From assembly GCA_963707395.1 (NCBI GenBank), contig CAVPPQ010000002.1, positions 195,474 through 259,473 on the forward strand: a stretch of 64,000 bases of DNA. Direction: 5' to 3'. Source of the DNA: an uncultured Chloroflexia bacterium. Its GTDB lineage: Bacteria > Chloroflexota > Limnocylindria > Limnocylindrales > CSP1-4. Positions 30,737-64,000 of the stretch are shown here, in pieces. Numbering within the stretch: the first letter of the stretch is position 1; each line of letters opens with the position of its first letter. Below the pieces are notes generated by a model. That model saw only the letters and a list, made by a program, of their open reading frames with translations. It searched no databases and was not told the origin of the DNA. The translations under genes and the position numbers were made by a program.

Positions 30737-30943
30737 CTAGAAGCGGCGGCGGCCGGGTGTGACCGCTGCGCCAACGACGGCGGCCTTGGCGACGGGCGAG
30801 GGGCCGGGGCCCACTGCTGCGCCAACGACGGCGGCCTTGGCGACGGGCGAGGGGCCGGGGCCCACCGCTGCACCCACCACGGCAGCCTTGGCGACGGGGG
30901 CGCCGATGACCCCGACTCCGGCACGACCTGGTCCGAGTGGCAT
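30737..30943 (-). CDS. 68-aa Gly/Ala/Val-rich peptide built from three 17-aa tandem repeats (PVAKAAVVGAAVGPGPS), translationally coupled to the upstream gene
   Basis: ATG 5-6 nt after AAGGAG and 1 nt after the upstream stop. Underlying 51-bp DNA repeat x3. Alternative frames give Pro/Arg-rich nonsense. Confidence 0.4.
   Translation of the reverse strand: MPLGPGRAGVGVIGAPVAKAAVVGAAVGPGPSPVAKAAVVGAAVGPGPSPVAKAAVVGAAVTPGRRRF
30765..30917. repeat. 51-bp tandem repeat x3 (gctgcgccaacgacggcggccttggcgacgggcgaggggccggggcccact…)
   Basis: Copies begin at 30765, 30816 and 30867. The third is diverged. Coincides with the small repeat-peptide ORF. Confidence 0.8.
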
Positions 30944-52867: not shown

Positions 52868-53398
52868 TCAGCTGGGGCGTTGTGCCCGTTGCGCGACCCT
52901 GATCTCGTGACGACGCGGGGTGCGCCCATCCACGGACGCGCGCAGCACCACCTGCCCCTCCGCGGGGATGGCCACCGGGATGTTGAAGGCCATCGGCACC
53001 AGCATGTCCATGCCGGCCATGCCGGGCGGGCGGCCCGTCGTCAACTTCGCCTCGAAGCCGACCAGGCGCTGCTCGTCCTGCTGCATCTCGACCGCCACCG
53101 TGTGCTCGTCGTCGGTGTGGGCGAACGGGATGCGCACGCCAAGGGCGATGCCCACGATCATGCGGTGCGGGAAGGCGGACGGCTGGATGCGGTCCCAGGC
53201 GGCACCCATGAGGTAGAGCTTGCCGTTGACGACCTCGGCCCGGTCAGCCACCAGGAGATAGTCGATCTCCGGCTTGCGAGCGAAGGTCGCCTCGGCCGCT
53301 TCCAGGGCGCCCTCCAGCCCATCGGCCGCCTGCGGCTCTCCTGGCGCGTCGGGATCGGGTGTCTGCGCGGGGTCGGGTGTCTGCGCGGGATCGGTCAC
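52868..53398 (-). CDS. hypothetical protein (176 aa, acidic Pro/Ala-rich N-terminus)
   Basis: Overlaps upstream DUF4389 gene by 4 nt. No motif recognised. Confidence 0.45.
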   Translation of the reverse strand: MTDPAQTPDPAQTPDPDAPGEPQAADGLEGALEAAEATFARKPEIDYLLVADRAEVVNGKLYLMGAAWDRIQPSAFPHRMIVGIALGVRIPFAHTDDEHTVAVEMQQDEQRLVGFEAKLTTGRPPGMAGMDMLVPMAFNIPVAIPAEGQVVLRASVDGRTPRRHEIRVAQRAQRPS

Positions 53399-54318
53399 AG
53401 TCGCGGGTCGTCCTCTCCGAGCGAGAAGGGCGGGTAGCGGTCGACCATCAGGAGCTGATAGGCGAGGACCCGGAAATACCAGCGGTTGTAGCCGCCGACG
53501 ATGGTGTAGATGACATCCGCCTGGTGGCCCGTGAAGAGGACCGGCACCCAGGTGAACCAGATGAGGAACATGGCCAGGATGTTCAGGAACGAGAGCACGA
53601 TGTAGTGCGGGATGAGGATGATGAAGCGCACCCAGATGCCGATGAGCGGGATGCCCCAGAGGCGGTTGATGCGCACGCCCTCGTCGAAGCGCACCGTGAC
53701 TGGGTGCTCCTCGCCGGAGAGGGAGAAGGGCGGATAGGTCGGTGTCAGCAGCTCAAGGTAGGCCTGCACGCGGACCAACCAGCCCATCAGGCCACCGATC
53801 CAGCGGTAGCCCCAGCCCGGGAAGCGGCCCAGGATGAGCACGGGGATCCAGGTCACGAGGCTGAGCAGAGCGGCCACGATGGCGATGAGCGCCAACAGGA
53901 TGAAGTGCGGGATGAGCAGGATGGTGCGGACGAGGATGCCGACGATCGGGATCCCCCAGAGCCGGTTGATCCGAGCGAGGCGGTCGTACGAGATGTTGAC
54001 CGGGTAGGCGTCAGGGGCAAGGGGGTAGGCCGGGGGCGGCTGCCAGACCGGCTCAGGCGGGAGATAGCCTGGGGGCTGGTAGCCGGGCGGAGGCAGCGGG
54101 TAACCGGGCGGAGGCGGCGGGTAGCCGCCGGCGGGCGGGTAGCCGGGCGGAGGCGGCGGGGCGTAGCCGCCAGGGGGCGGCGGGTAGCCACCAGGGGGCG
54201 GCGGGTAGCCACCAGGCTGGGAGTAGCCCGGGGGCGGCGCCTGCCACGGCGATGGCTGCTGGCCTTCACTCCATCGCGGATCCTGCGGAGTCGCGGGGCC
54301 CTGGGATTCCCACGTCAT
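53395..54318 (-). CDS. DUF4389 domain membrane protein (two tandem DUF4389 repeats) with Pro/Gly/Tyr-rich N-terminal repeat region
   Basis: Two copies of R(I/L)NRLWGIP…IPH(F/Y)I(L/V)L…YPPFSL. N-terminus has (GGYPPPP)n. Confidence 0.7.
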   Translation of the reverse strand: MTWESQGPATPQDPRWSEGQQPSPWQAPPPGYSQPGGYPPPPGGYPPPPGGYAPPPPPGYPPAGGYPPPPPGYPLPPPGYQPPGYLPPEPVWQPPPAYPLAPDAYPVNISYDRLARINRLWGIPIVGILVRTILLIPHFILLALIAIVAALLSLVTWIPVLILGRFPGWGYRWIGGLMGWLVRVQAYLELLTPTYPPFSLSGEEHPVTVRFDEGVRINRLWGIPLIGIWVRFIILIPHYIVLSFLNILAMFLIWFTWVPVLFTGHQADVIYTIVGGYNRWYFRVLAYQLLMVDRYPPFSLGEDDPRL

Positions 54319-54429
54319 GTCACGACCTCGATGTGGTCTGAACGTCCCTCACAGCGTACACGCATCCCGACCCCTCGGACGCGAGCCGGCCGCCGGAGGC
54401 CCGGCGGGACACGGCGGCCTGGACGCGGA

Positions 54430-60116: not shown

Positions 60117-61682
60117 CTAGAGGAGCTCTCCGTGCGCGGAGGCCGTGGGCTCGCCCTCGCGGGGCCGCGGCTCCTCACCCGGACCGAAGGCGGCGGCGCC
60201 ATCCCTGCCGTCGCCCTGGGACCCGGCACCGGTGCCGAGCTCGGGCAGTGGCCGGCCGGCCTGACCCTCGATGGCACCCACACCGTAGGGCACCCACTTC
60301 TCCGGCGACTGCAGGCGGTGCTGCTCCTCGTTGCCGCGGGCGTGAAGCTGGGCAAAGCCTGATGGCTCGATCCACATGGCATCACCCTGGAGGAGGGCGT
60401 GGACGCCGCCCTGTCCCGGCTCGGAGCGCTCGGAGCGGCACCAGGCGCAGCTGGCGCGCTGGTGGGCCTGGTAGTCCGTGGGCTCCTCGTAGGTCGTGAT
60501 GTAGCCCTCGTAGTTGCGCAGGATGACCTTGTGATCCGAGTAGCTGATGAGGTAGTTGGGCATGACCGGGATCTTGCCGCCGCCGCCGGGCGCGTCGATG
60601 ACGTAGGTCGGCACCGCATAGCCGCTGGTGTGCCCGCGCAGGCCCTCGATGATCTCGAGACCCTTGCCCACCGGCGTGCGGAAGTGCCCGGAGCCCTCCA
60701 CGAGATCGCACTGGTAGAGGTAGTAGGGGCGGATGCGGTTCTCGACCAGCTTGTGGACCAGCGAGCGCTGGATGTGCACGCAGTCGTTGACGCCGGCCAG
60801 CAGCACCGACTGGTTGCCGATGGGGATGCCGGCGCGTGCCAGCATGTCCACCGCGCGGGAGACCTCCGGGGTGATCTCGTTGGGGTGGTTGAAGTGGAGG
60901 TTCATCCAGAGCGGGTGGTAGCGGGCGAGCATCTCGCAGAGCTCGTCATCCACGCGCTGCGGCAGGAACACCGGGACGCGGGTGCCGATGCGCACGATCT
61001 CGATGTGGGGGATCTCGCGCAGGCCGCGCAGCACGCGCTCCAGCAGCTTGGGGGCCATCGTCAGCGGATCCCCGCCAGAGAGGAGCACGTCACGCACCTG
61101 GGGCGTGCGGCGCAGGTAGTCGAGCTGCGCCTCGAAGTCGCGCGTGTTGAAGTTCTGGGCCGCGTCGCCCACGATGCGTGAGCGGGTGCAGTAGCGGCAG
61201 TAGGAGGCGCACTGCGTGGTCACCAGCATCAGCACGCGGTCCGGGTAGCGGTGCACGAGGCCAGGCACGGGCGAATGGCGGTCTTCGGCCAGCGAGTCCT
61301 CCATCATGGCCGTGAAGGCCTCCTGCTCGCGCCCGAGAGGCATGACCTGGCGGCGGATGGGGTCGTCCGGGTCAGCCGGGTCCACGAGGCTGATGAAGTA
61401 GGGCGTGATGTCCACCCGGAACTTGTCCGGTGCACCGAGGCCCTCGCGCTCCTCGTTGGTCAGCTCCAGGATCTGGGCGAACGTCTCCAGGTCGTTGACG
61501 CGGTTGGAGAGCTGCCAGCGCCAGTCGTGCCACTGCTCGTCTGGCACGTCAGCGTAGAAGGGAGCGCGGCGGCTGCGGGCAGGTCGGCCATCGGCGCCCA
61601 AGGCGCGCGCGGGGTCTCGCGGGTTGACCCAGTCGTCCTGTCCGGGTGCTCGCTCCACGGTGGCGTCGGTCGCGTCCTGCAT
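60117..61682 (-). CDS. kamA: lysine 2,3-aminomutase family radical-SAM protein (KamA-like) with ~100-aa C-terminal extension
   Basis: CASYCRYCTRS (CxxxCxxC) radical-SAM motif, and KamA blocks VLLSGGDPL, PYYLYQCD, GYAVPTYVID. Start set at MQDATD. Confidence 0.8.
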   Translation of the reverse strand: MQDATDATVERAPGQDDWVNPRDPARALGADGRPARSRRAPFYADVPDEQWHDWRWQLSNRVNDLETFAQILELTNEEREGLGAPDKFRVDITPYFISLVDPADPDDPIRRQVMPLGREQEAFTAMMEDSLAEDRHSPVPGLVHRYPDRVLMLVTTQCASYCRYCTRSRIVGDAAQNFNTRDFEAQLDYLRRTPQVRDVLLSGGDPLTMAPKLLERVLRGLREIPHIEIVRIGTRVPVFLPQRVDDELCEMLARYHPLWMNLHFNHPNEITPEVSRAVDMLARAGIPIGNQSVLLAGVNDCVHIQRSLVHKLVENRIRPYYLYQCDLVEGSGHFRTPVGKGLEIIEGLRGHTSGYAVPTYVIDAPGGGGKIPVMPNYLISYSDHKVILRNYEGYITTYEEPTDYQAHQRASCAWCRSERSEPGQGGVHALLQGDAMWIEPSGFAQLHARGNEEQHRLQSPEKWVPYGVGAIEGQAGRPLPELGTGAGSQGDGRDGAAAFGPGEEPRPREGEPTASAHGELL

Positions 61683-61775
61683 GGGCCGCGATGATACCCC
61701 CGACACGACGTTTCCCCGGGGGGCGCGGTGGCCTGCCGCACCACGCCAGTGCCTGGAGCCTGGGTCCGGTGTCTT

Positions 61776-61806
61776 GACACACCGACCCCAGTGGCTCATA
61801 AGTGCC
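61776..61806 (+). promoter_or_regulatory. possible promoter (TTGACA-17/18 nt-CATAAG/TAAGTG) upstream of the first Flp pilin gene
   Basis: Good -35 hexamer, weak -10. About 300-nt leader to the 62103 start. Confidence 0.2.
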
Positions 61807-62102
61807 ATACCGTCAGCGGACCCGGAGCGGTACGTTGTCGTTGCCTGGACCCGCGTGGCCGTGAAGGCCCCGGTCGCGAGCCGGCGCATTCATCCATCCT
61901 CGGACAGCCGAATACGAAGGACGGGCACCGACCGAGCGGCGCCCGGGCCCTGTCCCCCGGCATCGCATCCTGAGCAGGCACGCGCTTCATCATCATCCTC
62001 GCGGTGGCTGCAGGGAACGGTCGCTCGGTCCGCATCGGATCGAGGGCAGCGGGCCGGCGGCCAGGTTCGTGAGCGAACTGTCCACCATCGGAGACACAGA
62101 CG

Positions 62103-62561
62103 ATGGAAACGCTTCGGAGCACGCTTGGCGCATTGGCCGACTGGGCCGCTCGCCGCGTCGTGTGGTTCAGATCCACGCTCGATGCCGCGCTGGCGGGCCG
62201 TCCCGACTCCGAGCGCGGACAGGGCCTGGCCGAGTACGCGCTCATCCTGTCACTCATCGCCGTCGCCGTCATCGGCGCGCTGACGTTCTTCGGACAGCAA
62301 CTCGATGGGCGTCTTCCTGGACCCGATCAACGCGGAGACATCAAGGTCTTCGACGGGATGCCTCGCGCCTCGGGTCGAGCCCTCACAAGGCGCTCGATCG
62401 GTGCCAACGAGCGGCCGGAGTTCGGTCACTGCGGGAGCGCGGCGGTTGATAGCTCCGGCGCCACGGCCTGGGACGACTGCGAACCCTGGGCTACGTCCTC
62501 GCCCTGCTCCTGCTGGGGTCGTCACGGCGCATCGAGCGCTAGGCGTCACCGCGGGGGCTAG
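62103..62561 (+). CDS. Flp/Fap pilin-like protein (Flp motif encoded at ~62217-62304); C-terminal part of ORF doubtful
   Basis: ERG/QGLAEYALILSLIAVAVIGALTFFG matches the G/XXXXEY Flp prepilin motif plus hydrophobic core. The ORF then runs another ~85 aa through a duplicated fragment, which is atypical. Confidence 0.5.
   Translation: METLRSTLGALADWAARRVVWFRSTLDAALAGRPDSERGQGLAEYALILSLIAVAVIGALTFFGQQLDGRLPGPDQRGDIKVFDGMPRASGRALTRRSIGANERPEFGHCGSAAVDSSGATAWDDCEPWATSSPCSCWGRHGASSARRHRGG
62469..62518. repeat. 50-bp direct repeat copy 1 (matches 62788-62837 with 2 differences)
   Basis: tgggacgactgcgaaccctgggctacgtcctcgccctgctcctgctggg versus copy 2 tgggaccgactgcgcaccctgggctacgtcctcgccctgctcctgctggg. 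Confidence 0.8.
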
Positions 62562-62781
62562 CTTCCGGCCCGTGCTTGAGGAGAGGCGATTGCGACACCC
62601 CGCCTTGGTGAGTGCCTCGACCGATCGGACGCCGCTCATCGAGCGTGGCGTCACGCGGCGGACCGCTGCTCGCGCCGTACGGACACGTGCGATGCGACGC
62701 CCTTCCCACAAGAGACGCTACGCCTCTGCCACGACAGCTGGCCTTCCCGGCGACTCGGCCGTTTGCTAGACTCCGGACGCC

Positions 62782-63177
62782 ATGACTTGGGACCGACTGC
62801 GCACCCTGGGCTACGTCCTCGCCCTGCTCCTGCTGGGCGTGGTCGTCTTCTCGCTGTACGGCGCCTTCCGCACGGAGCTCGAGAAGAGCCACTTCATCGG
62901 CTTCCTCGGTGGGGTCGTGCTGGGCACGATCATGGTGAGCCTCATCGTGATCATCCTCATCGTCCCGGAGCGGCGACGGACCGCCTGGGTCCAGGCCATC
63001 ACGACCGTCAACGCCAAGTACCTGTTCCTGGCGCTGATCATCGGCTGGGCGCTCGCCATGGGCCTGCTGGCCAGCCTGCAACTCGAGGTCAACACGGTCG
63101 GGGTCCCGGCGCTCATCGGCCTCTTCGCCGGCATCTTCATCTTCATGGGCTTCATCTGGTCCGTCATCGGCGAGTAG
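62782..63177 (+). CDS. small polytopic membrane protein (131 aa) within Flp pilin gene cluster
   Basis: 4 TM segments. Its 5' end is the second copy of the 50-bp repeat. Confidence 0.5.
   Translation: MTWDRLRTLGYVLALLLLGVVVFSLYGAFRTELEKSHFIGFLGGVVLGTIMVSLIVIILIVPERRRTAWVQAITTVNAKYLFLALIIGWALAMGLLASLQLEVNTVGVPALIGLFAGIFIFMGFIWSVIGE
62788..62837. repeat. 50-bp direct repeat copy 2
   Basis: See copy 1. Confidence 0.8.
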
Positions 63178-63281
63178 GGATGGACCGGCCGACGGGGTCG
63201 GGTCCATGACAGGACCGTCGGGTCGTGCAGGGTGGGACACGGTGACACCGCCGACGTCGCGGCGACTGGGGCAGCTCAGAG

Positions 63282-63476
63282 ATGAGGCCAGCCAGGCACT
63301 ACCTCGACCGACTCCTGGGGCATGGCGAGGACGGCGACCATCTGCTCGAGTACGCGTTCATCGCTCTCCTCATCATCGTCGTCGCCGTGCTCGCCCTCGT
63401 CTTCCTCGGTGACGCCGTCGCGGAGTTGATCTCGCTCATCGGTGGCCGAGTCGACGAGGTGACCGTCACCAAGTAG
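63282..63476 (+). CDS. Flp/Fap pilin component (64 aa)
   Basis: GDHLLEYAFIALLIIVVAVLALVFLG Flp motif; typical size. Confidence 0.75.
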   Translation: MRPARHYLDRLLGHGEDGDHLLEYAFIALLIIVVAVLALVFLGDAVAELISLIGGRVDEVTVTK

Positions 63477-63754
63477 GACCCACCGTCCCGCTCCCCGCCG
63501 GATCCGCACCGGGGCGCAGGGGCCGAAGGTCACGGGCGGGGACCCCCCAGAGGTGCCATCGACGGGCGCGCACACCCAGGACCATCATCCCGCCACTGAG
63601 GACGTGCGGCCATCATGCTGGTCGTCCCAGTGGACAGCTTGCGGCGGGGCTGTACCATCCGCCGTGCACGGGTGCTTCATGGCCCCGAGCGCATTCATCC
63701 ATCTCGGCGCCCGGCACCGCCGGATCGCCACCAGGAATAGGGAGGACCATCCGA

Positions 63755-64000
63755 ATGGTCGACTTCATGCTTCGCCAGTACGTGGCGCTTCAGAACTTCG
63801 TCGTCGACCGCGACGAGGAGGGCCAGGGCCTGGCTGAGTACGCGCTCATCCTGGCGCTCATCGCCATCGTCGCGATCGTCGCGCTGACCTTCCTGGGCGG
63901 CAAGATCAACAGCATCCTCAGCGACGATCGGCACGGCAGATCTAGCGCAGCGGCCTCGCAGCGAGCCGTACGACGGCCCGTCCCCTCGGGGACGGGCCGT
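63755..64000 (+). CDS. Flp/Fap pilin component, 3' end not reached in window
   Basis: ATG 8 nt after GGGAGGA. GQGLAEYALILALIAIVAIVALTFLGG Flp motif. No in-frame stop before the window end. Confidence 0.65.
   Translation, partial: MVDFMLRQYVALQNFVVDRDEEGQGLAEYALILALIAIVAIVALTFLGGKINSILSDDRHGRSSAAASQRAVRRPVPSGTGR
63973..64000 (+). terminator. strong GC hairpin (12-bp stem ACGGCCCGTCCC / GGGACGGGCCGT, 4-nt loop) at window edge
   Basis: Perfect inverted repeat. The downstream U-tract cannot be assessed because the window ends. Confidence 0.3.

Follow-up and report, generated by a model that had tools for sequence, protein, structure and literature searches.

The stretch of DNA analysed here, called the window below, comprises 64,000 nucleotides from an uncultured Chloroflexia bacterium of the order Limnocylindrales (contig CAVPPQ010000002.1, positions 195,474 to 259,473). 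Its 3' end carries three short genes, flp1, flp2 and flp3, that encode putative prepilins of the Flp (Tad-type) family, together with a gene for a small membrane protein. Comparison with related loci makes it likely, with fairly good confidence, that the locus is the end of a conserved Flp (type IVc, Tad-type) pilin module of Candidatus (Ca.) Limnocylindria, the anomalies in it being lesions peculiar to the window. The genes of the module, with lengths in amino acids (aa), are the following.

62103-62561, plus strand: flp1 as it stands, an open reading frame (ORF) of 152 aa.
62103-62363, plus strand: conserved gene model of flp1, with a 39-aa leader peptide, the G/QGLAEY cleavage at 62217 and the C-terminus ...VFDGMP.
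62782-63177, plus strand: conserved membrane protein of 131 aa, hydrophobic, with 4-5 predicted helices.
63282-63476, plus strand: flp2, an intact and divergent Flp-like paralogue of 64 aa, G/DHLLEYAFIALLIIVVAVLALVFLG..., also given as G/DHLLEYAFIALLI.
63755-63945, plus strand: flp3, the conserved model of which ends with TAG at 63943-63945; as it stands, there is no stop before the end of the window.

The comparison set consisted of 57 loci from species-representative genomes, retrieved by a scan with the membrane protein of the window, and of 33 metagenome loci, which gave about 90 related Limnocylindria loci. The 57 are nearly all metagenome-assembled genomes (MAGs) labelled Chloroflexota, Chloroflexia or Ca. 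Limnocylindrales, and one is a short fragment labelled Acidimicrobiia. The module and its flanks are common to the 57 genome and the 33 metagenome loci, the assignment being Chloroflexota or Limnocylindrales wherever one is named. The closest relative among the 57 is L001, with a membrane protein 98% identical and DNA about 89% identical to that of the window. Searches for sequences identical to the membrane protein and to flp2 returned no entry, and the collections searched accordingly lack the genome of the window itself. In the closer relatives the order is conserved: kamA on the opposite strand, a structured leader, flp1, the membrane protein, flp2, a second structured leader, flp3 and an intrinsic terminator. 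In distant Limnocylindria (L023-L047, e.g. L027:10001-10560) only one Flp gene is present, right after the membrane gene. Because the pair of membrane gene and flp gene is kept there, it represents the conserved core, and the three-pilin arrangement appears to be a clade-specific expansion. In a close relative, L060, whose membrane protein is 94% identical, the DNA that precedes the membrane gene (L060:1-276) bears no relation to the window's flp1 region; this relative may lack the flp1 side of the module or have it in rearranged form.

The motif G/XXXXEY was found in all three pilins (flp1 G/QGLAEY at 62217, flp2 G/DHLLEY at 63333, flp3 G/QGLAEY at 63821), and it is followed at once by a hydrophobic helical segment of ~20 residues and a short tail (ALILSLIAVAVIGALTFFG, AFIALLIIVVAVLALVFLG and ALILALIAIVAIVALTFLG, respectively). 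The flp1 core GQGLAEYALILSLIAVAVIGALTFFG begins at 62217, its ORF reading ...ERG/QGLAEYALILSLIAVAVIGALTFFGQQL... with a non-hydrophobic tail, and the flp3 ORF carries EEG/QGLAEYALILALIAIVAIVALTFLGG.... Both features looked for in a prepilin, a length of about 50-90 aa with a processing motif and the hydrophobic segment, are present, which bears out the preliminary description of the window, where three ORFs with the Flp prepilin motif and a hydrophobic core had been reported at these positions. Over 23 aligned pilins no variation is seen in the L, E and Y of the motif and hardly any in the Gly at -1, the exception being flp2 of L002 and L004, two sister species, with Asp in place of this Gly. 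At the flp2 position most species and other clades have a canonical GQGLAEYALIL pilin. The flp1 of relatives has a leader peptide of about 40 aa, against 39 aa in the window, and a longer C-terminal tail, and their flp3 reads MVDFLLRRDEDGQGLAEYALILALIAIIAIAALIFLGGQISxILSTIGAQI, followed by the stop.

The Pfam family Flp_Fap (PF04964) was the top match for flp1, flp3 and their intact orthologues, at 19.9-29.8 bits (E 6e-4 to 5e-7). No Pfam match was obtained for flp2 of the window's clade, and an NCBIfam search of the pilins gave none. A profile of 23 pilins matched solved structures in the PDB, namely 8u1k_A PilA (E = 2.1e-5), 8u2b_A Flp (E = 3.6e-5) and also 8ucr, and these matches span residues 4-39 of the 45-aa mature chains. 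Membership of the Flp (Tad-type) family, as proposed earlier, is thereby upheld. We conclude from the sequences that the ORFs are putative Flp-family prepilins and flp2 a divergent paralogue; the second 'pilin' of the preliminary description stands as an Flp-like paralogue, with the qualification that it is divergent, has no Pfam match and loses the -1 Gly in the two sister species.

The resemblance to known Flp/Fap Tad pilins (PF04964; Caulobacter crescentus PilA 8u1k; Flp type IVb pilin 8u2b and 8ucr; Aggregatibacter Flp-1/Flp-2) lies in the short prepilins with G/XXXXEY, the ~20-residue hydrophobic helix with a short C-terminal tail, the several tandem paralogues and the alignment of the profile over the whole chain. 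They differ in that the scores of the window's pilins lie below the cut-off and that the leader peptide of flp1, at about 39 aa, is unusually long and its C-terminal tail is longer too. Moreover, the genes are located between kamA and sulfotransferases rather than by tadV-rcpCA-tadZABC, with a small membrane protein interleaved. Class III signal-peptide proteins or archaeal-type pilins (PF04021) and the actinobacterial DUF4244 Tad-locus proteins share the N-terminal architecture and gave weak secondary Pfam matches, but far under the cut-offs, and Flp_Fap was always the better match.

The preliminary description had expected a Tad locus just beyond the window, which is not supported, and had suggested a search for the prepilin peptidase. 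Gene calls guided by GC content at third codon positions (GC3) over the whole window, with the ORFs in the gaps, were scanned against Pfam. The genes found specify transporters, metabolic enzymes, Suf proteins and other housekeeping functions; no T2SSE, T2SSF, Peptidase_A24, TadE, RcpC/SAF or secretin domain was detected in the whole window, the 62 kb upstream of the cluster included. In syntenic loci the first about 9-10 kb 3' of flp3 are likewise devoid of tad genes and encode sulfotransferases, PGA_cap and housekeeping proteins. An association with tadV/cpaA, rcpC/cpaB, tadZ, tadA/cpaF, tadB or tadC was therefore not seen within these reaches, and the Tad machinery, if present, would sit elsewhere in the genome. 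From what is known of the family, a TadV/CpaA-like prepilin peptidase would cut the prepilins after the Gly of G/QGLAEY, and a Tad machinery encoded elsewhere would polymerise the pilins through the hydrophobic helix. Chloroflexus, Roseiflexus and Ca. Viridilinea are reported to carry rcpC-tadZABC, tadEEG and flp (PMC7332563). These Tad loci belong to the same phylum and have Flp pilins as presumed Tad substrates, as in the module of the window; they contain identified machinery genes, whereas the window has none within reach. A literature search for pili in Limnocylindria found nothing.

The sub-threshold Pfam scores, the missing NCBIfam matches and the absence of tad genes over 62 kb upstream and about 9-10 kb downstream would also agree with the ORFs being small hydrophobic peptides of another role, in which G/XXXXEY is coincidental. 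We regard this as very unlikely. At E = 2e-5 the profile covers the whole mature chain of solved Tad pilins, the L, E and Y together with the hydrophobic helix are kept across three paralogue groups and many species, and other members of the Chloroflexota carry flp and tad genes (PMC7332563). The three pilin cores form one direct-repeat family in the window and the motif is kept in dozens of loci, so that a chance occurrence, which the preliminary description had named as a possible objection, does not hold.

The preliminary description had also drawn attention to an abnormal run-on of flp1. The ORF does run on, and alignment with intact orthologues traces this to three lesions. An extra base is found at about 62304, after CAA CTC, so that the following 33 nt (62305-62337) encode, in the +1 frame, MGVFLDPINAE, to be compared with VFWDPINAE of the orthologues. 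One base is short at about 62338-62339, which restores the original frame (...IKVFDGMP). Finally, CGC at 62364-62366 takes the place of the orthologues' stop, and the ORF continues for 65 codons. The intact orthologues end with ...VVQGLP, ...VVDNLP or ...VVQNMP directly before the stop, the last of these in the Illumina contig L059; in this contig and in L058, likewise Illumina, flp1 (...VVQNMP and stop), flp2 and flp3 are all intact. The extension is thus not a gene feature; relative to the orthologues it results from a +1/-1 pair of small insertions or deletions (indels) and an absent stop.

The stop-less flp3 is similarly explained. Alignment with 23 orthologues revealed two extra bases, AGC[G]ACGATC at about 63923 and GGCAC[G]GCAGATC at about 63936, both 5' of a universally conserved ATCTAG and within 20 nt of the TAG. 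The absence of a stop in the window is real, and these two insertions ahead of the conserved TAG account for it. Without them flp3 reads MVDFMLRQYVALQNFVVDRDEEG/QGLAEYALILALIAIVAIVALTFLGGKINSILSTIGTQI and then stops, its end ...KINSILSTIGTQI corresponding to ...ILSTIGTQI (consensus ILSTIGAQI), and the Flp_Fap score rises from 25.8 to 29.8 bits. The TAG is followed by a hairpin.

63973-64000, plus strand: stem of the flp3 intrinsic terminator, with arms at 63973-63985 and 63988-64000, each of 13 nt and 100% complementary.

The perfect GC hairpin already noticed at the end of the window, then given as 12 bp, has thus arms of 13 nt. It is kept in 22/22 orthologous loci with compensatory changes (e.g. 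ACGACCCGCCCCC / GGGGGCGGGTCGT) and is followed there by TTTCTTTGTGT. Both the GC hairpin after the stop and the U-rich tract of a rho-independent terminator are accordingly found in the orthologues, the tail of the window lying past 64000; a terminator pattern scan of the window gave no match, the sequence being cut at the end of the stem. The hairpin is the conserved intrinsic terminator of flp3.

Between flp1 and the membrane gene the window has about 320 extra bases compared with L001, L004 and L059, and this expansion includes a segment that resembles the start of the membrane gene, here called X', together with a spacer.

62443-62517, plus strand: copy X, a decayed 5' end of the membrane gene with the promoter-like TGnTAGACT region and codons 1-19, ATG being changed to ACG at 62463-62465.
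62518-62759, plus strand: spacer Y, 242 nt, lineage-specific, between the two copies.

The 50-bp duplication reported earlier is real in the sequence: a 1-nt indel and a mismatch are all that distinguishes 62469-62518 from 62788-62837, and a gapless core of 44 nt (62474-62517 / 62794-62837) is 98% identical. The similarity reaches farther 5', to 62443-62517 versus 62760-62837 (88% over 78 aligned positions), and thereby takes in 22 nt 5' of the ATG of the membrane gene. Relative to its partner, copy X has three 1-nt deletions in its first 45 nt, followed by the 44 nt at 98%. Its distance from flp1 is that of the orthologues, and it is colinear with L004 and with the orthologous position of the gene start; about 57 nt of conserved upstream sequence precede the intact membrane gene. 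Y matched nothing else in the window, and neither the 57 genome loci nor three closer short contigs contain a counterpart. X/X' is the only long dispersed exact repeat of the window; all further exact repeats of 25 nt or more belong to local tandem arrays. On this evidence the duplication is best described as a decayed copy of the promoter and the first 19 codons of the membrane gene, situated where a variable spacer shows a lineage-specific expansion of ~320 bp.

Duplication, recombination or local misassembly had been offered as explanations of this segment. The duplication is confirmed in the form of a decayed 5' copy, and misassembly stays a live option for the anomalies. In particular, the whole X-Y-X' arrangement (62443-62837) could be an assembly artefact in which two haplotypes were joined in series or a noisy read segment was kept. 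The differences between X and X', mostly 1-nt deletions in the first 45 nt with near-identity over the next 44 nt, are in line with this, and a duplication occurs at the locus in another assembly too, as an internal repeat of 27 aa in the membrane protein of P0001. However, the 242 nt of Y are unique and cannot be made from neighbouring DNA, and the length and content of the spacer vary naturally among relatives, Illumina contigs included. The spacer measures 68 nt in L059 and about 140 nt in L001; in L021 it reaches about 290 nt and contains tandem repeats, and in L060 the sequence at this place is unrelated and at least 276 nt long. The identity to L001 is also equal on the two sides of the duplication (89.7% and 89.1%), which gives no sign of a chimeric join; a chimeric contig join was rejected on this ground. 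We consider an artefact rather doubtful, at odds of perhaps one case in four, and retain the decayed copy in a variable spacer.

As to the origin of the small indels, we consider it moderately probable that they are consensus or assembly errors that arose in a metagenome assembly from long reads or mixed strains; differences between strains at a variable surface-protein locus are counted among these causes. Many of the relatives are 'MFD' MAGs, which are Nanopore-only Flye assemblies with one round of Medaka polishing (PMC12313526). Frame breaks occur in kamA, DUF885, HisA, fumarase and other genes of the MFD relatives, and the Illumina MAGs show none. Errors are favoured because the nearest relatives are such Nanopore-only MAGs with frameshifts in housekeeping genes, because the 3' stretch of flp3 concerned carries +1 insertions in five of them, from different species (L001, L004, L008, L013 and L018), and because the three 1-nt deletions within 45 nt of copy X form an error-like pattern. 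Two further observations were counted on this side: at one base-paired position of the flp1 leader the window lacks a G where 23/23 other sequences have a base, and no other flaw is seen in the promoter-like regions, the leader, the Shine-Dalgarno (SD) sequence, the start codon or the pilin core.

The flp3 insertions cluster by CGATC / AGATC in one 30-nt stretch (window 63919-63940), and none occurs in Illumina assemblies. This stretch may be a hot spot of context- or methylation-dependent basecalling. A systematic error linked to GATC and methylation was considered and is unproven; the motif is expected to be common in 64 kb, yet the large genes are without frameshifts.

If the indels were real instead, flp1 and flp3 would be recent pseudogenes and the spacer would be decaying, so that flp2 and the membrane protein alone would still function. 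The confinement of the lesions to the pilin cluster, the rest of the 64-kb window being without detectable frameshifts, is what such decay would look like, as is the sequence of an flp1 without stop codon followed by a degenerate gene fragment, and surface-appendage genes are often lost. Against this, the shifts are two +1 within 14 nt in flp3 and +1/-1 within 35 nt in flp1, in genes otherwise undamaged. No damage is seen in the conserved cores, leaders, SD sequences, start hairpins and terminator, and the alternative frame of flp1 still encodes the conserved peptide. Insertions at the same flp3 stretch are found in five Nanopore MAGs and in 0 Illumina assemblies. True decay is thus the less probable explanation, although we still allow it something like a three-in-ten chance. 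Programmed frame changes, by translational frameshifting or phase variation of pilin expression, appear extremely improbable to us. Phase variation of pilin genes is known in other bacteria; here, however, the shifts are absent from orthologues, differ in position from genome to genome and do not coincide with homopolymers, repeats or slippery sites.

Several points weigh against the interpretation of the locus as a conserved pilin module damaged by errors in the window. Every Flp_Fap score lies under the gathering cut-off of 32.2 bits, and the assembly of pili can only be presumed, as no tad gene was seen. In at least 15 large genes of the window a full-length Pfam profile is matched within a single ORF, and kamA, flp2, a beta-lactamase gene and the membrane gene each keep to one frame, while four to five indels are concentrated within about 2 kb. 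The missing stop of flp1, taken with the 320-bp insertion, might also reflect true decay. Since the window is clean elsewhere, a uniform error rate does not explain the indels and a local cause is needed. Candidates are strain heterogeneity at a variable surface-protein locus, an effect of sequence context or methylation, and a homology-guided frameshift correction that skips small ORFs.

The membrane gene is intact in 57/57 loci. The protein gave no Pfam or NCBIfam match above the cut-offs, and among its 527 homologues none has a Pfam domain or a consistent name. The AlphaFold2 model is all-helical and of low confidence (predicted local distance difference test, pLDDT, 69; predicted template-modelling score, pTM, 0.40). 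An A24-type aspartic peptidase was considered as its identity and is argued against by the hydrophobic stretches, which, as read from the sequence, contain no acidic residues. The constant linkage to flp genes suggests a pilin-related role. A conserved extended -10-like element, TGCTAGACT, is located at 62764-62772, only 9 nt from the ATG, which suggests that the mRNA of the membrane gene may be nearly leaderless. No Shine-Dalgarno sequence is present in 62764-62781. In the orthologue of P0001 (a JGI contig of 1621 nt, L001-like), the in-frame internal tandem duplication of 27 aa, with ISLIVTILIVPERRRTAWVQAITTVNA occurring twice, is either real or an assembly artefact.

Both flp1 and flp3 are preceded by long conserved regions of predicted RNA structure.

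61760-62102, plus strand: flp1 leader, inside the kamA-flp1 intergenic region 61683-62102; found by nhmmer at 25 loci.
63477-63754, plus strand: flp3 leader, a conserved structured intergenic region; found by nhmmer at 26 + 31 loci.
63595-63604 with 63623-63631, plus strand: helix of the flp3 leader, 97% paired.
63634-63638 with 63649-63653 and 63642-63647 with 63659-63664, plus strand: pseudoknot-like helices of the flp3 leader, 99-100% paired.
about 63666-63690, plus strand: hairpin of the flp3 leader.

Both regions are conserved like coding DNA, yet the conservation is not 3-periodic. In the flp1 leader the motif GCGCAUUCAUCCAUC is found at 61884-61898 and a CAUC-rich hairpin loop at about 61985-62000. 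Its start hairpin, CCAUC (62085-62089) / GAUGG (62102-62106), encloses the SD sequence GGAGA (62090-62094) and pairs the AUG. The helices obtained with RNAalifold are rich in G-U pairs, which identifies the plus strand as the structured one. In the flp3 leader GCGCAUUCAUCCAUC is located at 63689-63703 and the SD sequence GGGAGGA at 63740-63746, and the start-codon hairpin is formed by GACCAU (63745-63750) and AUGGUC (63755-63760). Pairs in the flp3 leader were counted over 51 distinct sequences, with 30 metagenome contigs fetched by a pattern that excluded the tested helices; 93% of cells were paired, compared with 30-48% in slid controls, and 10-14 pairs were changed on both sides. The helix 63595-63604 / 63623-63631 competes for CACUGAG with an upstream hairpin that likewise covaries, so that the two are mutually exclusive.

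The two leaders show no overall homology by nhmmer and share short motifs only. The sequence GCGCAUUCAUCC(A)UC, predicted to be single-stranded, is common to both and, barring two stray matches, occurs only there in the loci examined, and both present the CAUC-rich hairpin loop. Rfam 15 gave no match to the leaders at gathering score, the window and seven related loci yielding only a tRNA, and a permissive search of the same sequences returned chance-level matches only. Two sigma-70 promoters, TTGACA (61775) N17 CATAAG and TGGACA-N16-TACCAT (63631-63658), were a first reading of these regions and are now uncertain, the former because covarying hairpins (GGUGCC / GGCACC, UGGCUC / GGGCCA) are found there in other clades, the latter because it overlaps helices with G-U variation.

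With regard to function, the leaders are candidates for translational control and would probably regulate flp1 and flp3 by sequestering SD sequence and AUG. Long conserved leaders, covarying helices, a mutually exclusive pair and a start-codon hairpin are features shared with SD/AUG-sequestering leaders and riboswitches; the window's leaders differ in having no Rfam family, and no terminator-type expression platform was seen. It is tempting to speculate, as a rather tentative proposal that we hold less likely than its negation, that they represent a new class of cis-regulatory RNA for Flp synthesis in Limnocylindria, perhaps answering to a common trans-acting protein or RNA that binds CAUC, and that the 131-aa membrane protein is a hitherto unrecognised accessory of an 'orphan' Flp module with a distant Tad system.

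The flanks of the module are conserved as well. Downstream of flp3 follow two sulfotransferases, PGA_cap, threonine aldolase, DUF885, a HisA-like gene and fumarase, as seen in 20 syntenic genome loci and in the independent Illumina contigs L063, L065 and L083. The two tandem sulfotransferase genes (L002:11269-12988; syntenic in L001-L022, L063, L065 and L083) always come after the flp3 terminator, on the pilin strand, with PGA_cap next. A link of the sulfotransferase and PGA_cap neighbours to pilin or surface modification is possible. On the other side lies kamA.

60117-61889, minus strand: kamA (lysine 2,3-aminomutase-like radical SAM), an overlong ORF of 590 aa; the conserved protein starts with the ATG at 61680-61682.

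The N-terminal overextension of this ORF passes through the flp1 leader. Farther upstream the window contains a tandem array at 1732-1915 (2.6 copies of 70-71 nt, 92-93% identity) and another at 30762-30898 (2.7 copies of 51 nt, 93% identity, including 50 nt that are identical). A degenerate 21/39-nt repeat at 54074-54239, in a minus-strand gene (53395-54348), encodes the Pro/Gly/Tyr-rich N-terminus (GGYPPPP...) of a DUF4389 membrane protein.

Small ORFs that run on or lack a stop in metagenome assemblies, especially long-read ones, should be treated with caution, as they can stem from a few uncorrected indels, and comparison with orthologues settles such cases fast. Several Flp paralogues are, moreover, no predictor of an adjoining Tad locus. 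The set of Flp paralogues is itself ordinary, and the leaders are the only potentially new element of the locus. The uncultured class Limnocylindria, widespread in soil and freshwater, possesses a conserved Flp module detached from its machinery, with a membrane partner and two leaders outside Rfam, and this module offers a concrete entry point for studies of adhesion or pilus regulation in Limnocylindria.

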